Below are positions 23,733 through 55,883 of a stretch of DNA of 64,000 bases, one piece after another. The DNA is taken from the NCBI GenBank assembly GCA_033286805.1, contig GCA_033286805.1_4727.1; one strand, given 5' to 3'. Position 1 is the stretch's first letter. Each line of letters begins with the position of its first letter. Position numbers and translations under genes: made by a program. A model generated the notes under the pieces. It was not told the origin of the DNA and searched no databases. It was given only the letters and a program-made list of their open reading frames with translations. Source of the DNA: a phage.

Positions 23733-24128
23733 TTACTTTTTGGCGTCCGTTGGTGATTCAGTATGTTTCTCGCTGCTGGTGTACCAGAGTAGGTATGTCG
23801 GGAAAAGATTAACCTCTAAGCTAAACGGGATATTATATTTTTCTTCCATTTTGCAGAGATGTTCTTTAAGTAAATCCCTTGCTTCTTTGTTACGGCGAGC
23901 GGAGTGCCAATGTAGTTCTTCGTTCTCCTTTACCAGTACTTCTACAATGATACGCTGCTCGTGAACCTCGGTTTTCACAATAGCAAGTAAATCGTTACTA
24001 TCGAAACGGGTAAAACGAATGTACGAACCAGGCGTTTTTTCTTGTTTAACGATATCGATCATAGTAGAAATGTGTGGGTGATCGATGTTGTCGTTAACTG
24101 CTTTAACGATGGAATCTACAACGCTCAT
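23733..24128 (-). CDS. small paralog-array protein (divergent member)
   Basis: N-terminus MSVVDSIVKAVN resembles the paralog N-termini; AAGGA SD. Confidence 0.55.
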   Translation of the reverse strand: MSVVDSIVKAVNDNIDHPHISTMIDIVKQEKTPGSYIRFTRFDSNDLLAIVKTEVHEQRIIVEVLVKENEELHWHSARRNKEARDLLKEHLCKMEEKYNIPFSLEVNLFPTYLLWYTSSEKHTESPTDAKK

Positions 24129-24168
24129 TTTTTTTTATCCTTAATGTTATCGGTTTAGAAATAATATT

Positions 24169-24933
24169 TTATTTGCTGTTATCTTTATCGACAGTTGTTA
24201 CCCATGATGGGAAAGCCGGATGGAAACAGAGCGTGAACGTAACCTTCGTATCGTATTTAAACGCACGGTCCACTAGCCGAGTATCGAACGTTTCCCTTAG
24301 ACCGTCATCATCGTTATCGATGACAGCCATATCCCTTAATATCCCAAGCACGTTAACGCCATCTGGTGTCTGGGTTACAACAAGTCGTCGTAATGGTCCG
24401 CATGTATAATCACGTACGTATCCTTTCTTCGGGTCCGATACTCTATTTAACGCATCGTGATTTTCGATGAATTCATCGGCAATACGAGTGATGTGTTCCC
24501 TTGCTTTATCTGGATCGTATTCTGCTAATAGTTCCTTCGTGTCGAATGTTATCGCGTTATTAGCATTCGATTCAGAAGGGAAACATAAAACTAAACGAAC
24601 AGGGTATTCGTATTGATCTGTTCTTGTTTCGAAAGCATTAGCTAAACACGGCTTGTATGCCTTTGCGTCGACATTGTCCAAACACGGATGCAATAATGCA
24701 TGAATAACGGCACCATCATCAGTTAAACCGAATTCCATAAATTGTGTTTCATCGGTGTCTGTTACGGTTTTCTGAAGGTACGCTTTACCGTTAACAATAT
24801 CGGTATCCCACATATCGTCGTTTAACGATTCTTCAAACTTATCGAATATATGGTTTACGAGATTGACGAGTTCATCAATACGGCACTGTTGGTTGAATTC
24901 GATTAATCGTTGAACTTTATCTTTGATAGACAT
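24169..24933 (-). CDS. small paralog-array protein, apparently duplicated domain (254 aa)
   Basis: MSIKDKVQRL N-terminus; internal YEYPVRLVLCFP and VTFTLCFHP repeats; AGGAG SD. Confidence 0.6.
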   Translation of the reverse strand: MSIKDKVQRLIEFNQQCRIDELVNLVNHIFDKFEESLNDDMWDTDIVNGKAYLQKTVTDTDETQFMEFGLTDDGAVIHALLHPCLDNVDAKAYKPCLANAFETRTDQYEYPVRLVLCFPSESNANNAITFDTKELLAEYDPDKAREHITRIADEFIENHDALNRVSDPKKGYVRDYTCGPLRRLVVTQTPDGVNVLGILRDMAVIDNDDDGLRETFDTRLVDRAFKYDTKVTFTLCFHPAFPSWVTTVDKDNSK

Positions 24934-26649: not shown

Positions 26650-26675
26650 AAAAAAAAGGTGGGGCGAACCCCACC
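26650..26675 (-). terminator. rho-independent terminator (minus strand)
   Basis: GGTGGGG-CGAA-CCCCACC preceded on plus by A8, so a U-tract follows on the minus transcript; just past the stop at 26701. Confidence 0.75.
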
Positions 26676-30850: not shown

Positions 30851-31324
30851 ATGCCAGTTTCATCCAAACCAAGAAAAAAATCCGTAGGAAACCCTAAAGC
30901 TCAGGAAACAACAGCGATTCGTTGGGACGAGTTACGTGAACCTATCGAAAACTGCGAATTGTTGTTGGGCACCCTGGGTGCGGCTATTTACCAAGCGACG
31001 CAACCCTGTCGTTTACGATTAACCCAAAACAAACGTGATGAGTTCGTTGCGTTATCAACAAGCACGAATAAAGATCTGACCGAACTTCAAACCGAGTTGA
31101 CGACGATCAAGAACTCCATTACGCCGATGTACGGTAAAGAAGTTGATGAACAAAGTATTCTGTTACAGTACAACTACGGGATGTCGTTAATGAACATCCT
31201 GGAACGCGCATCCGATATTCTGCGTCCTGACGTTGCACGCCTAAGCCAACTGCGTGTCGAAGGGATGGAGAACCAGATCCGATTCGCTAACAGTGTTAAA
31301 TCTCAAGGAGCCACCGAAGCATGA
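30851..31324 (+). CDS. hypothetical protein
   Basis: 157-aa ORF, AGGAG SD; stop overlaps the next start (ATGA). Confidence 0.6.
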   Translation: MPVSSKPRKKSVGNPKAQETTAIRWDELREPIENCELLLGTLGAAIYQATQPCRLRLTQNKRDEFVALSTSTNKDLTELQTELTTIKNSITPMYGKEVDEQSILLQYNYGMSLMNILERASDILRPDVARLSQLRVEGMENQIRFANSVKSQGATEA

Positions 31325-33006
31325 GCGAACAAGAAAAAGAAGTCGTGACGAATCAGGAAGCCGTCGAGCGTTCAGAGTCGTCCGTTGAAACCACGATTCC
31401 GGCAAGTTCCGAGCCTGTTGGTTCCACACAGCAGGAAAGTAAAGACGAAGTCAGCACGACTAAAGAAGATGTAGCGGCTCCAGAAGCAACCCGTGAAGAA
31501 GAACCATCACATCCACCGCTGGTTGATTTCTCGAAAGCAACGATACGTTTCCAATGCGAAGACATTCGTCCTAAGAGCCCGAAGAAAACAAAACGCCAGC
31601 CGCTGGTGTTACCGCTGTATTCTCCGCGTGTACAAACAGCGTATTACAAGGAATACATCAACGAAGCAATGGATACCGTACAAGCCATTGTCGCTCAACG
31701 CGGTAAACCTTCGGACGAGCAATTTGATAAATTCAGTAAAGCGGTAGTGCAATCGGTTGCTGATGGGCAATACCAACCGCGTGGCCCAGCTCACGATCGC
31801 GCCTTGGAACGTAAGGGCAGTCAGTGGACTAACGTACCCGTAGACTCATCGGGTGTTGGTCGCGTTATTCCTGGCATTCCACAACCGAATCATATTCCTG
31901 ATGATGTCGAAGCGCCGCTGACAGGAACCGATGCGATCTATTTTGCAATCCGCAATACGAAATCGGGCGCACCTGCGGTAATGCCGTTATGGCATAGCGG
32001 TATTAAGCTGCAGTTCAATCCACCGTCAAATGAACGTGTCGCAATTATGCATGAACGTATTGCACGCGATAAAATCCTGGGTGGACGTGATAGTACCGGT
32101 TTCCTGTTTTCGGCAACCTCGATTATCACCATGAAGCACGCAATCGAATTAGCATTAGAATGCTGCTACATGGCCAACGTACCGAACCTGGATATCCAGC
32201 GTTTGAAAGACATTATTCCGGTTACCGATGTTCCAGCACTGTTGTTGAACGTGCTGGTAACCATGTATCCGTACGGATATCCTTACGTACAGACCTGCTA
32301 TCAGAATCCAGAAACCTGCGACTATCGTGTTGAAGATACCGTAAGCTTTGCGAAGCTCTATCAAGTTGACAACAGTGCGATTACCAAACGTATGCGACAG
32401 ATCATGACCGAAGGTCCGGTCATGACCGATGAACTTTTGCGTGAGTATGCAAACGAACTGGGTGAAACAAACTCCCGTACGCTGGATCTGTCCGACAACG
32501 GTTCTGTTATCATTGAACTTGAAGTACCGAAGATCTCACGACAAATCGCCATGGGCGAGCGCTGGTTAAGCGATACCCTGGAAGATCTGCGTGATATTCT
32601 ATCGCGTCCGTCAATGACCGAAGAAGAGCGCGATCGTGTTATTCGTGAACGTCAGTTCTATAGCTGGATGCGTCAGTATGATGCATGGATCAAATCGATG
32701 CATGTGTCAGTAAACGGCACCATGCGTCGTGTAAGCGATGCGGATACAGCAACGGTATTAGCGCAGCTGTCTCGTGATAGTGATCTTCGTGAACGCTATA
32801 TCGATGGGTTGATGCAATTCATCGGTGATTCGACGATTGCGCTCGCAGCAATGCCTGCCTGGAAATGTCCGAAATGTAATGCCGATATTGCTGACAATCT
32901 GCGTGACCAGAAATACTACGATCTGATTGCTTTGGATGTACCCCAGCTTTTTTTTACCCTAAACTCCGTCCAATCTCTTCAGGAGGGGATGGACGCGGTA
33001 TTCTAA
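31321..33006 (+). CDS. hypothetical protein with acidic Ser/Thr/Glu-rich N-terminus (561 aa)
   Basis: AAGGAG SD; a T8 run at 32948-32955 lies near the 3' end. Confidence 0.65.
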   Translation: MSEQEKEVVTNQEAVERSESSVETTIPASSEPVGSTQQESKDEVSTTKEDVAAPEATREEEPSHPPLVDFSKATIRFQCEDIRPKSPKKTKRQPLVLPLYSPRVQTAYYKEYINEAMDTVQAIVAQRGKPSDEQFDKFSKAVVQSVADGQYQPRGPAHDRALERKGSQWTNVPVDSSGVGRVIPGIPQPNHIPDDVEAPLTGTDAIYFAIRNTKSGAPAVMPLWHSGIKLQFNPPSNERVAIMHERIARDKILGGRDSTGFLFSATSIITMKHAIELALECCYMANVPNLDIQRLKDIIPVTDVPALLLNVLVTMYPYGYPYVQTCYQNPETCDYRVEDTVSFAKLYQVDNSAITKRMRQIMTEGPVMTDELLREYANELGETNSRTLDLSDNGSVIIELEVPKISRQIAMGERWLSDTLEDLRDILSRPSMTEEERDRVIRERQFYSWMRQYDAWIKSMHVSVNGTMRRVSDADTATVLAQLSRDSDLRERYIDGLMQFIGDSTIALAAMPAWKCPKCNADIADNLRDQKYYDLIALDVPQLFFTLNSVQSLQEGMDAVF

Positions 33007-33068
33007 TCGATCCGCGATACGGGTTACATGACGGACAACTTGTTCGTAATGATGGAAAAATCTGGGAA

Positions 33069-33428
33069 TTGCTGTTAGCGCGTAAAGGCGATGGTGGCAT
33101 GAAATTGAACATCGAAATGGGTATTGCGTACGATACCATGTTTGGTTTGTACGATCGGGTTAACGACTGGACGCCGTTGAAATGGGTGGCTCAGCACCCC
33201 GCTGAAGATCCCTGGGACAGATTAGGGATTAAACCCTTAATCGAGGATTATGTCCGATTCGGTATTAAAGAGTTCATGACGCTGGATGCGTTTTTAAAAG
33301 CACCGTATCCTTACGCGCAAACGGTACTCAAAATCGCACAAGACGAACTGCGGAAACGTAGTGCGGTACTGGACGACGATGAGGACAAGTTACGACGAGA
33401 AGAAGAACGTTTACGAAACGGAAAATAA
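33069..33428 (+). CDS. hypothetical protein; possibly the C-terminal continuation of 31321-33006 after a -1 shift
   Basis: This frame is open from 32907 with no ATG/GTG/TTG until TTG 33069 and ATG 33099; translation upstream of 33069 looks protein-like. Confidence 0.45.
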   Translation: MLLARKGDGGMKLNIEMGIAYDTMFGLYDRVNDWTPLKWVAQHPAEDPWDRLGIKPLIEDYVRFGIKEFMTLDAFLKAPYPYAQTVLKIAQDELRKRSAVLDDDEDKLRREEERLRNGK

Positions 33429-33429
33429 A

Positions 33430-33939
33430 ATGGCAAGATTTACCAGTTTGATTGGATTGGACATTTGGGAAACACCGGCTGACGTTCGGGTTATTCCTGT
33501 CAACACCGTCGGTGTGATGGGACGTGGTCTTGCCAAGCAGGCAGCCGATCGTGTGCCCGGTCTTCTTGAAGCGTACCGTAAGCAATGTCAAGATGGGTTT
33601 AAGGTGGGCGAAGTCGTGTCATATCAGCATGGCGAGAACGATCAGCTCACTTACGTGTTGTTTCCATCAAAATCGGATTGGCGTGAAAGAACACGACGCG
33701 AGTATATCGTTAACGGTTTACTGGCGTTAAAAGCATGGTTATTGGAGCTTCAGTTCGAAAGAGATGGCTTCTCATACCACCGTCCGGCTGAACCGTTGAT
33801 TGTCGCAATTCCTCCGGTTGGTTCTGGTTGCGGTAATATCGGTTACGGACAATCCGAAACAATCCAGCCTCAGTGGGTACGCGCACAAATCAAACAGTAT
33901 CTTGCCACCGTGCCGAACGTTCATTTCTACTTGTTCTAA
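33430..33939 (+). CDS. macrodomain protein, DarG/TARG1-like (putative ADP-ribosyl hydrolase)
   Basis: IPVNTVGVMGRGLAKQ (cf. VNTVNxVGVMGKGIA), FPSKSDWRER with candidate catalytic Lys, AIPPVGSGCGNIGYG. ATG 2 nt after the upstream stop; start moved from ORF-track 33361. Confidence 0.6.
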   Translation: MARFTSLIGLDIWETPADVRVIPVNTVGVMGRGLAKQAADRVPGLLEAYRKQCQDGFKVGEVVSYQHGENDQLTYVLFPSKSDWRERTRREYIVNGLLALKAWLLELQFERDGFSYHRPAEPLIVAIPPVGSGCGNIGYGQSETIQPQWVRAQIKQYLATVPNVHFYLF

Positions 33940-34979: not shown

Positions 34980-37592
34980 TTAAGCGTCCGGCGTAAAATC
35001 AAAAGGAATGTCCGTACGAATGATATCGTAACGTTTTCCTAGGAAATAAAACTCTTCGGGAACCTGACCAGGAATAATGCTATCGCCGATGAACTGCGGA
35101 TACGCCCAGATGTACTGAGTGAGTCCTTCGAACATATCCAGGTTATTTGCATGGTTACCCATGATACGTTTCCAGAGTTCGCGTTTATACGGTGTTTTAA
35201 CATCGAATCCATAAAGCGGTGCAAGATCTTCACCAGGAACAAATCCCAGGTAATAATGGATCTGACTAACCGGGAAACCAAGCGTATCTCGCGGAATGGT
35301 GATCGCTTGCTCTGCCTTGGTGACATGCGTCTCAATAATCCAGTCGTAGCACTCCGAATAGAACCGGTCGAATTTCTCTGGGTTATACCACGCTTTGGGA
35401 AGATTGAGTTTCTCCGTGAACGCGTTCGACATGATCGTCGGCAAGAACGGAAGAACACCGGTTTTGATCTGCGTGTATTTCGATTTTACCCGATTAACCA
35501 AATTCCAGCAACTGTATCCTAACTGTTCGTTACAAAACTCAACGTAGAGATCGTAGTCACCACCGGATAATGGGTTGTTAATATCACCGATGTCTGCGGC
35601 ATATTTGTTGGGATATCGGTTATTGAAAGCCAGTTTGGTTTGGTAATCGTAGATACACGGTTTGTTGTTCGCTGTATTGATCCACCACCAGGGTTCACCT
35701 ACTTGCACACAAATGTCCTGGACATGGGGGTAGATGATATCAGCAAACGCGGTTAACACATCCCCTAACCACGCCATCGCCTGTTGGTTACATGGAGACA
35801 GCAACCAGGACGGTGGTGTGTATCCGGTTGCTGCGATGTTTCCTTCCCAATCCTGCTGCGCCCACTCGAACGGGCAGGCTGTACTCATCAATTCGTAACT
35901 TAAACTGATGGTGACAGAGAAATGGTGTTTTGCGGCGTATGCAGCGAAAGCTTCATGCCATGCGATACAGGGTGGATTTAATACATCCGTGGTGTTCACC
36001 AGTAACTTACCTGCACTTGGCGTCCAGACAGTATCGTAGAAATGCGACATTCCAACATAGTGCACTAATTCATCCTGATATCCAGCATAAACCAGGTTTT
36101 CAAATACACGCTCTGGCGTGATGTTGTAATGGTCATCATAAGCGGTTATCGCACGAAGTTCGTGTGGCGTACAATGATGGCGATTAACCGTCATTTCCTG
36201 ATACACCCCATCGATAGGAAGAATCTCGAGGGTTAAACCAAGATCGATCGGTGTTTCCAGATAGGTCGTTTCTGTAGCACCTTCTTTATAATGTCGAGAA
36301 CTCATGCTGAACATCAACGACGTTACCGATTCGAGTTCGATAGGCTCGTCAGCATAGAACCCCGCCATTGCGTCATTGAAATCGATCGTTACGATTGCGC
36401 TTCTACCGTCTTCAGAGACATCGGTGGCGTATCGGGTTAATGAGATATACTGACGGCTATCGTCTTTGTGTACGACGGTTAAAACCGGCGGGTTTTCGGT
36501 ATCTGCAAAGTTACGCTGATCGCCAGTAAACGTGATCTTCGCTTTAAAGATCAAACCGAATAACGACGTCATGGGATCATACGCAATACAACCGTGATCC
36601 AGCGTATCCGTTGTCCGCCATTCTATCCCGACCAACCCGTTAGCGGTATGGCATCGCATATACGCATTAAGGACCATGTCTTCACTGACAACCGCGAAGT
36701 TCTCTGTTGACTGACCGTTGATAATCCAATACATCGGTTGCCAGAGGTTACGCGTACCTTTTGCGTAGCGGTAGGTTGGCGCGCCTTTAGGGTTGCCGTT
36801 ATTAAGATGGAATACAGCAGTACCTTGATAATGGTCGTTCGTATTAATCGGAACACTGTAAGCATCACCGAGATCCGTACGTTCCACCTTCTTGACTGTT
36901 GCGTTTTCAAATAACCCACGCAGCGCGGGTAAACCGATATCATCAGGCGCGTTTTCTCGACGAATCGCATCCGCGATGCGGTGGGCTAGGGCGGGGTAAA
37001 TGGTCTCACCCTGTTGTAGGTTTGCAAGACCTACAAAGCGATCGGGAGCGATGCCAGCAATCAATAACTCAACATCACCCTTCGTTCTATCGTCATTAAG
37101 ATATTTCAGTCCGGTAAGGTCAAGATGCTGAATAAGCGACAACAGGTTGTATTTACGGTTTTCAACAGTTAGTACAAGATCGCCTGCCCAAACCAAACTT
37201 CCCTCATCCGCTGTTACTTTAACGGATTGTCGGCCTGTGGTAGACGTTGTTGTCGTTTTATTTAATTGTCCTTGTAGGAAGTCGGTTGCGAGGTCAAAGG
37301 CAATACCGTAACGGTCAGCGACCGCTTGCATGATTTCACGTAACTGGGTATCTTCTTCAATGATAATCTTGACAGGTATTCCCAAGAACGCTTTAGCGAG
37401 GTCTCGTTTAACCAACGAGACGAATACGGATTTGTAGTATCGGCTTCCATCTTTCCCTTTAAAAAGAATGGAGGTTGTTTCGGGTGCCGATAGAACACGT
37501 GCAAATACAACATCGTCGGAAGTAAGAGAAAGTCCGTTTTTCTCGTTGACCAATCTTAGTATTTCATTTTGCGCGGTTTCATGTAACTTCAT
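34980..37592 (-). CDS. putative tail fibre/tailspike-like protein (870 aa) with shared N-terminal domain
   Basis: N-terminal ~110 aa (RDLAKAFLGIPVKI) paralogous to the 43326-43853 and 47669-48499 products. Confidence 0.55.
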   Translation of the reverse strand: MKLHETAQNEILRLVNEKNGLSLTSDDVVFARVLSAPETTSILFKGKDGSRYYKSVFVSLVKRDLAKAFLGIPVKIIIEEDTQLREIMQAVADRYGIAFDLATDFLQGQLNKTTTTSTTGRQSVKVTADEGSLVWAGDLVLTVENRKYNLLSLIQHLDLTGLKYLNDDRTKGDVELLIAGIAPDRFVGLANLQQGETIYPALAHRIADAIRRENAPDDIGLPALRGLFENATVKKVERTDLGDAYSVPINTNDHYQGTAVFHLNNGNPKGAPTYRYAKGTRNLWQPMYWIINGQSTENFAVVSEDMVLNAYMRCHTANGLVGIEWRTTDTLDHGCIAYDPMTSLFGLIFKAKITFTGDQRNFADTENPPVLTVVHKDDSRQYISLTRYATDVSEDGRSAIVTIDFNDAMAGFYADEPIELESVTSLMFSMSSRHYKEGATETTYLETPIDLGLTLEILPIDGVYQEMTVNRHHCTPHELRAITAYDDHYNITPERVFENLVYAGYQDELVHYVGMSHFYDTVWTPSAGKLLVNTTDVLNPPCIAWHEAFAAYAAKHHFSVTISLSYELMSTACPFEWAQQDWEGNIAATGYTPPSWLLSPCNQQAMAWLGDVLTAFADIIYPHVQDICVQVGEPWWWINTANNKPCIYDYQTKLAFNNRYPNKYAADIGDINNPLSGGDYDLYVEFCNEQLGYSCWNLVNRVKSKYTQIKTGVLPFLPTIMSNAFTEKLNLPKAWYNPEKFDRFYSECYDWIIETHVTKAEQAITIPRDTLGFPVSQIHYYLGFVPGEDLAPLYGFDVKTPYKRELWKRIMGNHANNLDMFEGLTQYIWAYPQFIGDSIIPGQVPEEFYFLGKRYDIIRTDIPFDFTPDA

Positions 37593-48499: not shown

Positions 48500-48560
48500 G
48501 CTGACCTCATAGATGATCGTTGATAGGAAAGAGACCTAATTCATACCATGGGAACCTCAA

Positions 48561-48614
48561 AAAAAAAAACGAAAAATAGGGAAACGGTGTTCATCCTTTT
48601 TAGGGATGAACACC
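48561..48614 (-). terminator. rho-independent terminator (minus strand)
   Basis: Perfect stem CGGTGTTCATCC/GGATGAACACCG with loop TTTTTA; plus-strand A11 run gives a U-tract on the minus transcript. Confidence 0.75.
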
Positions 48615-55201: not shown

Positions 55202-55283
55202 GATTACTGTCCTTTTGAAATATGTTTAGATAAGGAGGATTTACCGGGTATTAAAAAGTTATTTGGTATGTAATGTTTTTTTT

Positions 55284-55883
55284 TTACTTAGGTTCCAGTA
55301 TTGGTCCGAACAACCAGAATGTCAGACGCTGGTAAACCTGTTCGATGACTGCGGCTTCTGTTTGCTCTTCTAGCGCTTTCCCTTTCTTATGTTGTATTTC
55401 TGGCGGGATGTCGCCGTTGTAAACATACCCTGCTGAGAAGTCCCACGCCAGCCGTTTACCGAAAGTAGGTAAGAACACCTCTTCGAATCGGAACGCTTTC
55501 GAATTCCAATGAAGCAGCTGATCGGATTCAACATGTAAAGCTTTATTACGTTTGCTTGGCATGTTTCCGAAGTACTGAACGATAGCTGATTTCATAACCC
55601 GATCTGCGAAGTCTTTGGCTTCGACCTCATCGAGGGGAGGCAGACGATGCGATAGATTCAGCTTGCGTTGTTCAACATCTATCTTACGCATCGCTTTAAT
55701 CAAATCACCAGGAACGATTTTACCCTTATGGCCTTCCTGTCGGTGTATGAAACACCCCTGGAATAGCACGCAAAGTTCTTGAGGTGCTGTACTTTCCATT
55801 CGTCCGTAAGCAACGATCACCGAACGACGACGATCAATAACTTCGCGGATAAACCGCGGCTCAGTAATACTCACCACTGTCAT
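55284..55883 (-). CDS. hypothetical protein
   Basis: 199-aa ORF, AGAGGG SD. Confidence 0.6.
   Translation of the reverse strand: MTVVSITEPRFIREVIDRRRSVIVAYGRMESTAPQELCVLFQGCFIHRQEGHKGKIVPGDLIKAMRKIDVEQRKLNLSHRLPPLDEVEAKDFADRVMKSAIVQYFGNMPSKRNKALHVESDQLLHWNSKAFRFEEVFLPTFGKRLAWDFSAGYVYNGDIPPEIQHKKGKALEEQTEAAVIEQVYQRLTFWLFGPILEPK

Follow-up and report, generated by a model that had tools for sequence, protein, structure and literature searches.

Does a pair of overlapping open reading frames (ORFs) in a jumbo phage represent two genes, or one gene that is read in two ways? The question is raised by a 64,000-nucleotide (nt) stretch of phage DNA (GenBank assembly GCA_033286805.1, contig GCA_033286805.1_4727.1), referred to below, at its full length, as the window. 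Here a 561-amino-acid (aa) ORF on the + strand (31321-33006) contains a run of eight thymines, T8 (TTTTTTTT, 32948-32955), terminates shortly after it and is overlapped by an ORF in the −1 frame. An earlier note, made from the sequence alone, had proposed either recoding (programmed frameshifting or transcriptional slippage) to give a fusion of about 700 aa, or a homopolymer sequencing error that splits one gene. Recoding is strongly supported by the comparisons reported here. The locus is a real conserved recoding site within the known class of programmed −1 frameshifts, and, as judged from sequence comparison, it is quite probable that the shift takes place on the ribosome, at the T8 run of the 561-codon gene, yielding forms of 63 and 80 kDa.

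Anatomy of the locus

The T8 run lies where the earlier note had placed it, in the context CAG CTT TTT TTT ACC CTA. In frame 0 it is read as CT[T TTT TTT] ACC (L F F T), and a slippery heptamer, T_TTT_TTT (32949-32955, + strand), is contained in it in this phase. The frame-0 ORF given in the ORF list, which would be the short isoform (561 aa, 63.3 kDa), terminates at a TAA (33004-33006) 49 nt past the run and 16 codons beyond Phe-Phe. The −1 frame runs without a stop from 32907 to its TAA at 33426-33428 and, as had been noted, contains no ATG, GTG or TTG after T8 before the TTG at 33069, 38 codons past the site; the next ATG is at 33099. Its translation upstream of this TTG contains YPKLRPISSGGDGRGILIDPRYGLHDGQLVRNDGKIWELL. 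The −1 extension (32955-33428, + strand) comprises 157 codons (YPKLRPISS...RLRNGK) and the TAA, and is conserved at the protein level in 50 loci. Joined to residues 1-545 of the frame-0 product, it gives a fusion of 702 aa and 79.7 kDa. Both frames would be decoded within the overlap at 32956-33003 (+ strand), in which frame 0 encodes the tail TLNSVQSLQEGMDAVF and the −1 frame the start of the poorly conserved linker of the long form. The segment at 33099-33428 (+ strand), annotated as a separate 109-aa gene (Goslar gp082, phiKZ gp76.4-like), is read here as the C-terminal two thirds of the extension. A T8 run is by itself unremarkable, with 11 matches on both strands of the window against 8.4 expected from shuffles. 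Its significance therefore rests on context and comparison, that is, on the in-phase heptamer, the open −1 frame and conservation.

The proposed mechanism is as follows. With UUU UUU (32950-32955) in the P and A sites, both tRNA-Phe would re-pair one base back on U_UUU_UUU, and the slipped ribosome would go on to read UAC CCU AAA in the −1 frame. Unslipped ribosomes would finish 16 codons on, producing a 561-aa form that ends in a conserved amphipathic basic helix. Slipped ribosomes would exchange this helix for a linker of variable length, poorly conserved and probably flexible, followed by a conserved and probably helical domain of about 130 aa.

Conservation of the two-frame layout among chimalliviruses

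At the nt level this region of the window shares 95.6% identity with Escherichia phage Goslar, which belongs to the nucleus-forming jumbo phages (Chimalliviridae). T8 and both frames are the same in Goslar, where the two ORFs, gp081 and gp082, carry separate annotations as hypothetical proteins. Three substitutions distinguish Goslar from the window in the interval from the frame-0 stop to the TTG, two of them synonymous in the −1 frame. The 561-aa protein has homologues in Goslar gp081, phiKZ gp77, 201phi2-1 gp136 and PhiPA3 gp074, with small downstream ORFs in phiKZ (gp76.4), 201phi2-1 (gp135) and PhiPA3 (gp073); Noxifer and Eowyn have the same pair. In phiKZ, Noxifer, Eowyn, 201phi2-1 and PhiPA3 the small ORF occupies the −1 frame each time, and no record joins it to the larger one.

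The comparison was extended to the named phages plus 73 further loci obtained from a scan of viral contigs, with about 70 metagenomic chimallivirus contigs; the loci are phylogenetically related, and 75 were analysable for the frame test. In 74 of these 75 the −1 frame overlaps the end of frame 0 by 43-256 nt without a stop of its own and runs 371-548 nt past the frame-0 stop; the +1 frame usually closes within 60 nt. Stops in the −1 frame occur about once per 10 codons in the gene body, and an open run of 150 codons would arise by chance with P ~2e-7 per locus. The −1 frame becomes open no more than 6 codons ahead of the site in 16 of 50 loci. The sole outlier is L076 (IMGVR_UViG_3300011972_000001), where an early stop ends frame 0 at 2705 and the +1 frame continues for 874 nt, suggestive of a frameshift in the assembly or of a gene disrupted in this contig.

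Closer to the window, T8 and ACCCTAAACTCC are unchanged in five genomes of the Goslar clade, the most distant at 54% aa identity, and the 17 nt that follow T8 are invariant in relatives over the same range. A Goslar-like genome, L078 (GCA_007261085.1, contig AAHLWB010000010.1, 180 kb), with 87% aa identity for the 561-aa protein, was found in a Salmonella enterica serovar Panama assembly. It may stem from a relative of Goslar that is associated with Salmonella, from contamination or from a pseudolysogen in that isolate.

Database searches place the end of the shared protein at the same point. A tblastn search with the hypothetical 702-aa fusion matched 158 phage records; in most of those listed the match ends at residue 545, the second Phe, and in the others it ends at 519-521 or resumes as a second piece. 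The phmmer and Foldseek matches of relatives end at residues 545-554. Homologues of the 561-aa protein form 1222 clusters in a representative library, and the cluster of the 561-aa form itself has 355 member sequences. The best 150 of the 1222 library homologues all end 8-20 residues after FF. The earlier note had suggested looking for homologues with a single continuous ORF, and none was found among the best 150 of these clusters or among five close relatives. The short and long forms are probably needed in a set ratio, which would explain why no collapse into one ORF or into two clean genes is seen.

The probable slip site and the agent of the shift

The site, its phase and its −1 relation to the downstream frame are conserved from Goslar to phiKZ. 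An in-phase N_UUU_UUY at the conserved Phe-Phe was present in 52 of 52 loci, as T_TTT_TTT, T_TTT_TTC, G_TTT_TTY or A_TTT_TTT (first base T in 43, G in 7 and A in 2). Three apparent exceptions, L074, L075 and L077, do contain T_TTT_TTT and have a longer frame-0 tail. All 52 loci use UUU for the first Phe, a codon that accounts for 45% of the 1224 Phe codons elsewhere in these genes. For the second Phe, 34 loci have UUU and 18 have UUC, in keeping with the X_XXY_YYZ rule.

We infer that the ribosome, and not RNA polymerase (RNAP), is the agent of the shift. The alternative that survives best is transcriptional slippage, in which the phage non-virion RNAP or the host RNAP would stutter on T8/A8 and add a U; the resulting CTT TTT TTT TAC (L F F Y) specifies the same 702-aa fusion. 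Because the product is identical, protein-level evidence cannot separate the two mechanisms. Slippage would be favoured by the strict retention of eight T throughout the Goslar clade, by runs of T7 or T8 in 35 of 50 loci and by the second Phe codon, which is UUU in 65% against the 45% background, as though longer runs were favoured; moreover, no RNA stimulator of ribosomal shifting was found. Slippage of E. coli and Thermus RNAP requires runs of about 8-9 or more. Among the 50 loci the run is T5 in 3, T6 in 12, T7 in 24 and T8 in 11, and in the 15 with only T5 or T6 (e.g. the T5 site G_UUU_UUC of the Noxifer type) slippage by the polymerase is expected to be negligible. A homopolymer conserved at a length of at least about 8-9 independently of codon phase, as slippage would call for, was thus not seen among these loci. 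On the contrary, the constraint tracks the codon phase: the third base of the first Phe codon is always U and that of the second is free, as predicted by tandem tRNA slippage and as a polymerase would not need. The short runs in many lineages make polymerase slippage unlikely as a general mechanism, and overall we regard it as rather improbable.

Coding constraint in both frames and the downstream start

The earlier note had remarked that the −1 translation ahead of the TTG reads like real protein. This is borne out by the pattern of substitution. In comparisons with L078 and L081, which are 85-87% identical, the ratio of nonsynonymous to synonymous substitution rates (dN/dS) in the −1 frame is 0.06-0.14 over codons 19-48, that is, from the frame-0 stop to the annotated ATG, and 0.01-0.02 further downstream. 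The extension aligns over its full length in 50 loci and carries at codon 22 an xFG motif with a nearly invariant Phe/Tyr, which in the window is upstream of any start. Synonymous divergence in the −1 frame is 0.39-0.62 elsewhere but only 0.07 across the 18 codons of the overlap. The frame-0 tail is constrained too: in 115 homologues it has a median of 14 residues with the consensus T-L-L-x-Q-R-[LI]-x-[KR]-[IV] and is conserved as an amphipathic helix, which indicates that the short form matters as well. Taken together, the coding constraint in both frames and the failure to find a single long ORF in the library suggest that both isoforms appear to be under selection.

These data bear directly on the annotation as two independent genes, in which a small protein would be translated from TTG 33069, from ATG 33099 or from a near-cognate codon such as ATT 33000. 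Two genes are listed in all six curated records inspected (Goslar, phiKZ, Noxifer, Eowyn, 201phi2-1 and PhiPA3) and in the gene calls on four contigs, a peptide has been assigned to gp082 by mass spectrometry (MS), which by itself shows no fusion, and in the window a Shine-Dalgarno (SD)-like AGGAGGGG stands 11 nt before ATT 33000. However, this SD-ATT pair is lost in L079 and L080, and the first NTG of the −1 ORF ranges from codon 14 to codon 101 across loci (codon 85 in phiKZ, 100-101 in L029 and L033), so that no conserved start exists; two loci lack any ATG in the −1 ORF. Conserved residues and purifying selection reach upstream of every candidate start. Separate genes would require neither the −1 frame in 74 of 75 loci nor a frame that is open back to Phe-Phe everywhere. 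It therefore seems very unlikely that the two ORFs are independent. The earlier note had held that its reading would be refuted if reads firmly supported T8 and homologues also showed two genes, the downstream one with an independent and well-supported start. The homologues are indeed annotated as two genes, but the finding is not refuted because the downstream gene is without a conserved, well-supported start.

A further alternative is a sequencing or assembly error (a true T9) or a recent frameshift mutation that leaves a pseudogene. Several platforms are prone to errors in homopolymers, and the fused sequence makes sense as a protein. However, the same −1 shift is required by independently sequenced genomes with runs from T5 to T8 (Goslar, phiKZ, 201phi2-1, PhiPA3 and some 70 independent metagenomic contigs). 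The cluster of the 561-aa form has 355 members, none of the best 150 of 1222 clusters has a single long ORF, and the frame-0 tail past T8 is itself conserved. This leaves the explanation with next to no probability, and a sequencing error is effectively refuted on comparative grounds.

The SD-like AGGAGGGG is at 32981-32988. Behind it come ATG 32989, which is in frame 0 and five codons short of the stop, and ATT 33000, which is in the −1 frame; the SD-like stretch forms the 3' arm of a local hairpin and is not conserved in L079 and L080.

Stimulatory elements, virion proteomics and points on the opposite side

Several observations weigh against a programmed ribosomal shift as set out above and are gathered here. 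The first concerns stimulatory elements. A candidate hairpin (32963-32999, + strand, −16.7 kcal/mol) begins 8 nt 3' of the heptamer, but it is weakly supported (z −1.68; 12 of 200 shuffles fold equally well) and is neither kept in L079 and L080 nor conserved across the clade. When the 75 nt past the site were folded in 47 loci, the mean z was −0.36 and no family-wide downstream structure was found. RNAalifold gave a weak consensus with one compensatory pair for the Goslar clade, and the phiKZ, Eowyn, L079 and L080 regions, each folded as a single sequence, did not fold better than shuffles. Across loci, SD-like motifs are not enriched on either side of the site. As neither a conserved stimulatory structure nor an SD-like element was found, the efficiency of the shift could be low.

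Secondly, in L019, L020 and L043 the site is reduced to U_UUU_A, which suits slippage of a single tRNA and does not match the classic heptamer. Thirdly, the bias of the first Phe codon to UUU corresponds to a naive P of ~1e-21, a figure that is inexact because the loci are phylogenetically related. Finally, the T8 of the Goslar clade has the length needed for some transcriptional slippage, which may contribute.

The proteomic data should be read with similar care. In Table S4 of the Goslar virion preprint, gp081 is represented by 24 peptides (49% coverage) and gp082 by one. From this table the mass-normalised ratio of gp082 to gp081 is 0.336/2.349, or about 0.14, a value consistent with a minor trans-frame product; it depends on a single gp082 peptide, on a search that used the two-gene annotation and on a sample that also contains the non-virion proteins PhuZ and chimallin. 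Predicted junction or linker peptides of the 702-aa form are YYDLIALDVPQLFFYPK, LRPISSGGDGR, GILIDPR, YGLHDGQLVR and IWELLLAR, and the predicted peptide specific to the short form is YYDLIALDVPQLFFTLNSVQSLQEGMDAVF. Junction peptides were not among the listed rows of the Goslar MS supplement, for which the search database was the two-gene annotation.

Predicted fold and possible function

The AlphaFold2 model of the 561-aa form is confident (predicted local distance difference test score, pLDDT, 84; predicted template modelling score, pTM, 0.83) and places Phe-Phe within the C-terminal helix, residues 540-560. That of the −1 extension is poor (pLDDT 49). No match to the 561-aa model was found among solved structures. 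By sequence, Pfam and a search of the PDB gave no match, and PHROGs returned only families 4585, 8054 and 12109, all of unknown function. Foldseek matched about ten models annotated as T4-like 'baseplate hub assembly protein/chaperone' (E 5e-5 to 9e-4, probability 1.0, target template modelling score 0.49-0.55); these targets are predicted structures and rank after chimallivirus homologues and a few unannotated viral models. Matches to annotated tail assembly chaperones were non-significant (E 0.23-1.6, probability no more than 0.2).

Gp26 and gp51 of T4 are baseplate hub assembly chaperones (Leiman et al. 2010, PMC3004832), and both match PF12322. When profiles were compared with hhalign, residues 244-548 were colinear with gp26 7-208, with CPxC and FFxL aligned, at a low probability (7-43%). 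T4 gp26 (L082, NC_000866, 7803-8429, − strand) ends in ...CPECGKTHAHVIRGLKEFFELL, with the same CPxC...FFxLL as the gp77 family. The likeness thus extends over a shared beta-strand and CPxC knuckle, the C-terminal FFxLL and the predicted fold. In contrast, the chimallivirus protein is over twice as long as gp26 or gp51 and is unmatched by PF12322. The FF codons of T4 gp26 are TTC TTT, which is non-slippery, and no shift is needed there. T4 gene 26 also gives two products, gp26 and gp26', but the second arises by internal initiation and not by a frameshift. T4 gene 25 starts at a TAATG that overlaps the end of gene 26, likewise in the −1 frame.

Two points count against this functional link. 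Pfam, PF12322 included, gave no match to the window protein (threshold E <= 0.1) or to 12 family members (threshold E <= 1), and the connection to gp26/gp51 is drawn from Foldseek matches to predicted structures and a weak profile alignment. With no Pfam match and a low hhalign probability, homology of the gp77 family to gp26/gp51 is unproven, if plausible. The resemblance of the core fold to gp26/gp51 leads to a working model in which the protein would be a chaperone in two C-terminal versions, as in lambda gpG/gpGT, with the extension serving as an adaptor to another partner. Tentatively, then, the phiKZ gp77 family may be the tail or baseplate-hub assembly chaperone of chimalliviruses, an enlarged distant relative of gp26/gp51 with G/GT-like isoforms made by a family-wide U_UUU_UUY shift; we think this specific assignment possible rather than likely.

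Comparison with known recoding systems

The lambda gpG/gpGT frameshift was reportedly described by Levin, Hendrix and Casjens in 1993, and its conservation in long-tailed phages, it is said, by Xu, Hendrix and Duda in 2004. In both systems a −1 shift near the 3' end of the gene produces a short and a C-terminally extended form with a common N-terminal part, the site is kept in very divergent phages though the sequences are not, and the startless downstream ORF is often mis-annotated; the nearest structural relatives of the chimallivirus protein are, again, assembly chaperones. It is by analogy with G/GT that the −1 extension may be an adaptor. The systems differ in the slip site (G_GGA_AAG type in lambda, U_UUU_UUY here), in size (about 140 aa in lambda and 100-150 aa in its family, compared with about 550 aa here, 561 in the window) and in location, as the lambda-type gene lies between those for the tail tube and the tape measure whereas the chimallivirus gene lies beside that of the beta subunit of the virion RNAP.

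The T7 gene 10A/10B capsid frameshift, reportedly described by Condron, Atkins and Gesteland in 1991, resembles the present case in its −1 shift at a U-rich tRNA-Phe site a few codons before the end of the ORF, in its minor extended isoform and in the absence of a classic strong pseudoknot next to the site. It concerns a major capsid protein with another extension, whereas here a conserved region of 157 aa is appended and the site is kept family-wide. In E. coli dnaX, too, −1 tandem slippage on a homopolymeric heptamer (A_AAA_AAG) lets a single gene specify two products, tau and gamma, at a fixed ratio. In dnaX, however, the shifted product is the shorter one, and an upstream SD-like element and a downstream hairpin are present, neither of which is conserved here.

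Consequences for annotation

If the frameshift is accepted, one conserved gene, represented by 1222 public sequence clusters, would encode two proteins, and the small downstream ORF would be mis-annotated as a gene of its own in all six curated records inspected, the phiKZ RefSeq record included. A joined annotation was found neither in these six records nor in the gene calls on four further contigs. A search of the literature on phiKZ gp77, PHIKZ077, chimallivirus frameshifting and 201phi2-1 gp136 yielded no report of the site and no genetic or biochemical study of the protein. (The names 'gp77', in the papers on Goslar and PhiPA3, and 'gp136', in those on PhiPA3, refer to different proteins.) The reading of knock-outs, of CRISPR interference or transposon hits, of tagging and of proteomics of both 'genes' would change accordingly. 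phiKZ, 201phi2-1, PhiPA3 and Goslar are heavily studied for their nucleus-like compartment, and their conserved genes of unknown function are being resolved singly. The site would also be a natural −1 frameshift that seemingly relies on a U-rich Phe-Phe site with no recognisable conserved stimulator, in proteins that are now about 20-30% identical.

The comparison further offers a functional lead: the protein may be a chaperone of hub or tail assembly that, like lambda G/GT, comes in two versions. Were that true, the frameshift rule of tail assembly would extend to giant nucleus-forming phages and to the T4-type hub-chaperone lineage, and the gp76.4/gp082/gp135 ORFs of every chimallivirus genome would be a recoded C-terminus and not genes.

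Other features of the window

The neighbouring genes are those of the virion RNAP beta subunit, two hypothetical proteins and the macro-domain protein, with a helicase in phiKZ, Noxifer and Eowyn. As the earlier note had stated, the product directly precedes a macro-domain gene (33430-33939, + strand; Pfam PF01661, E 1.4e-5), the ATG of which, at 33430, comes directly after the −1 TAA. In the Goslar record the macro-domain protein is longer, with a start further upstream that makes it overlap gp082. The macro-domain gene of phiKZ (ORF104, by a note in the Goslar record) is located elsewhere, which indicates that the adjacency of gp082 and the macro-domain gene is clade-specific.

Other long homopolymers of the window are T9 at 24128-24136, A8 at 26650-26657, A11 at 48559-48569 and T10 at 55276-55285. 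They are mostly outside frames of at least 80 codons (the T9 touches a 100-codon frame, 24107-24406, and the T10 abuts a 199-codon minus-strand frame) and are probably intergenic signals. Further downstream, an 870-aa ORF (34980-37592, − strand) is the counterpart of Goslar gp086. Its homologue in L078 carries PF25613 (DUF7941), NCTSP_N and TIM-barrel_NCTSP domains, and DUF7941 is a chimallivirus-specific family that has been linked to baseplate-anchored filaments in the Goslar virion preprint.

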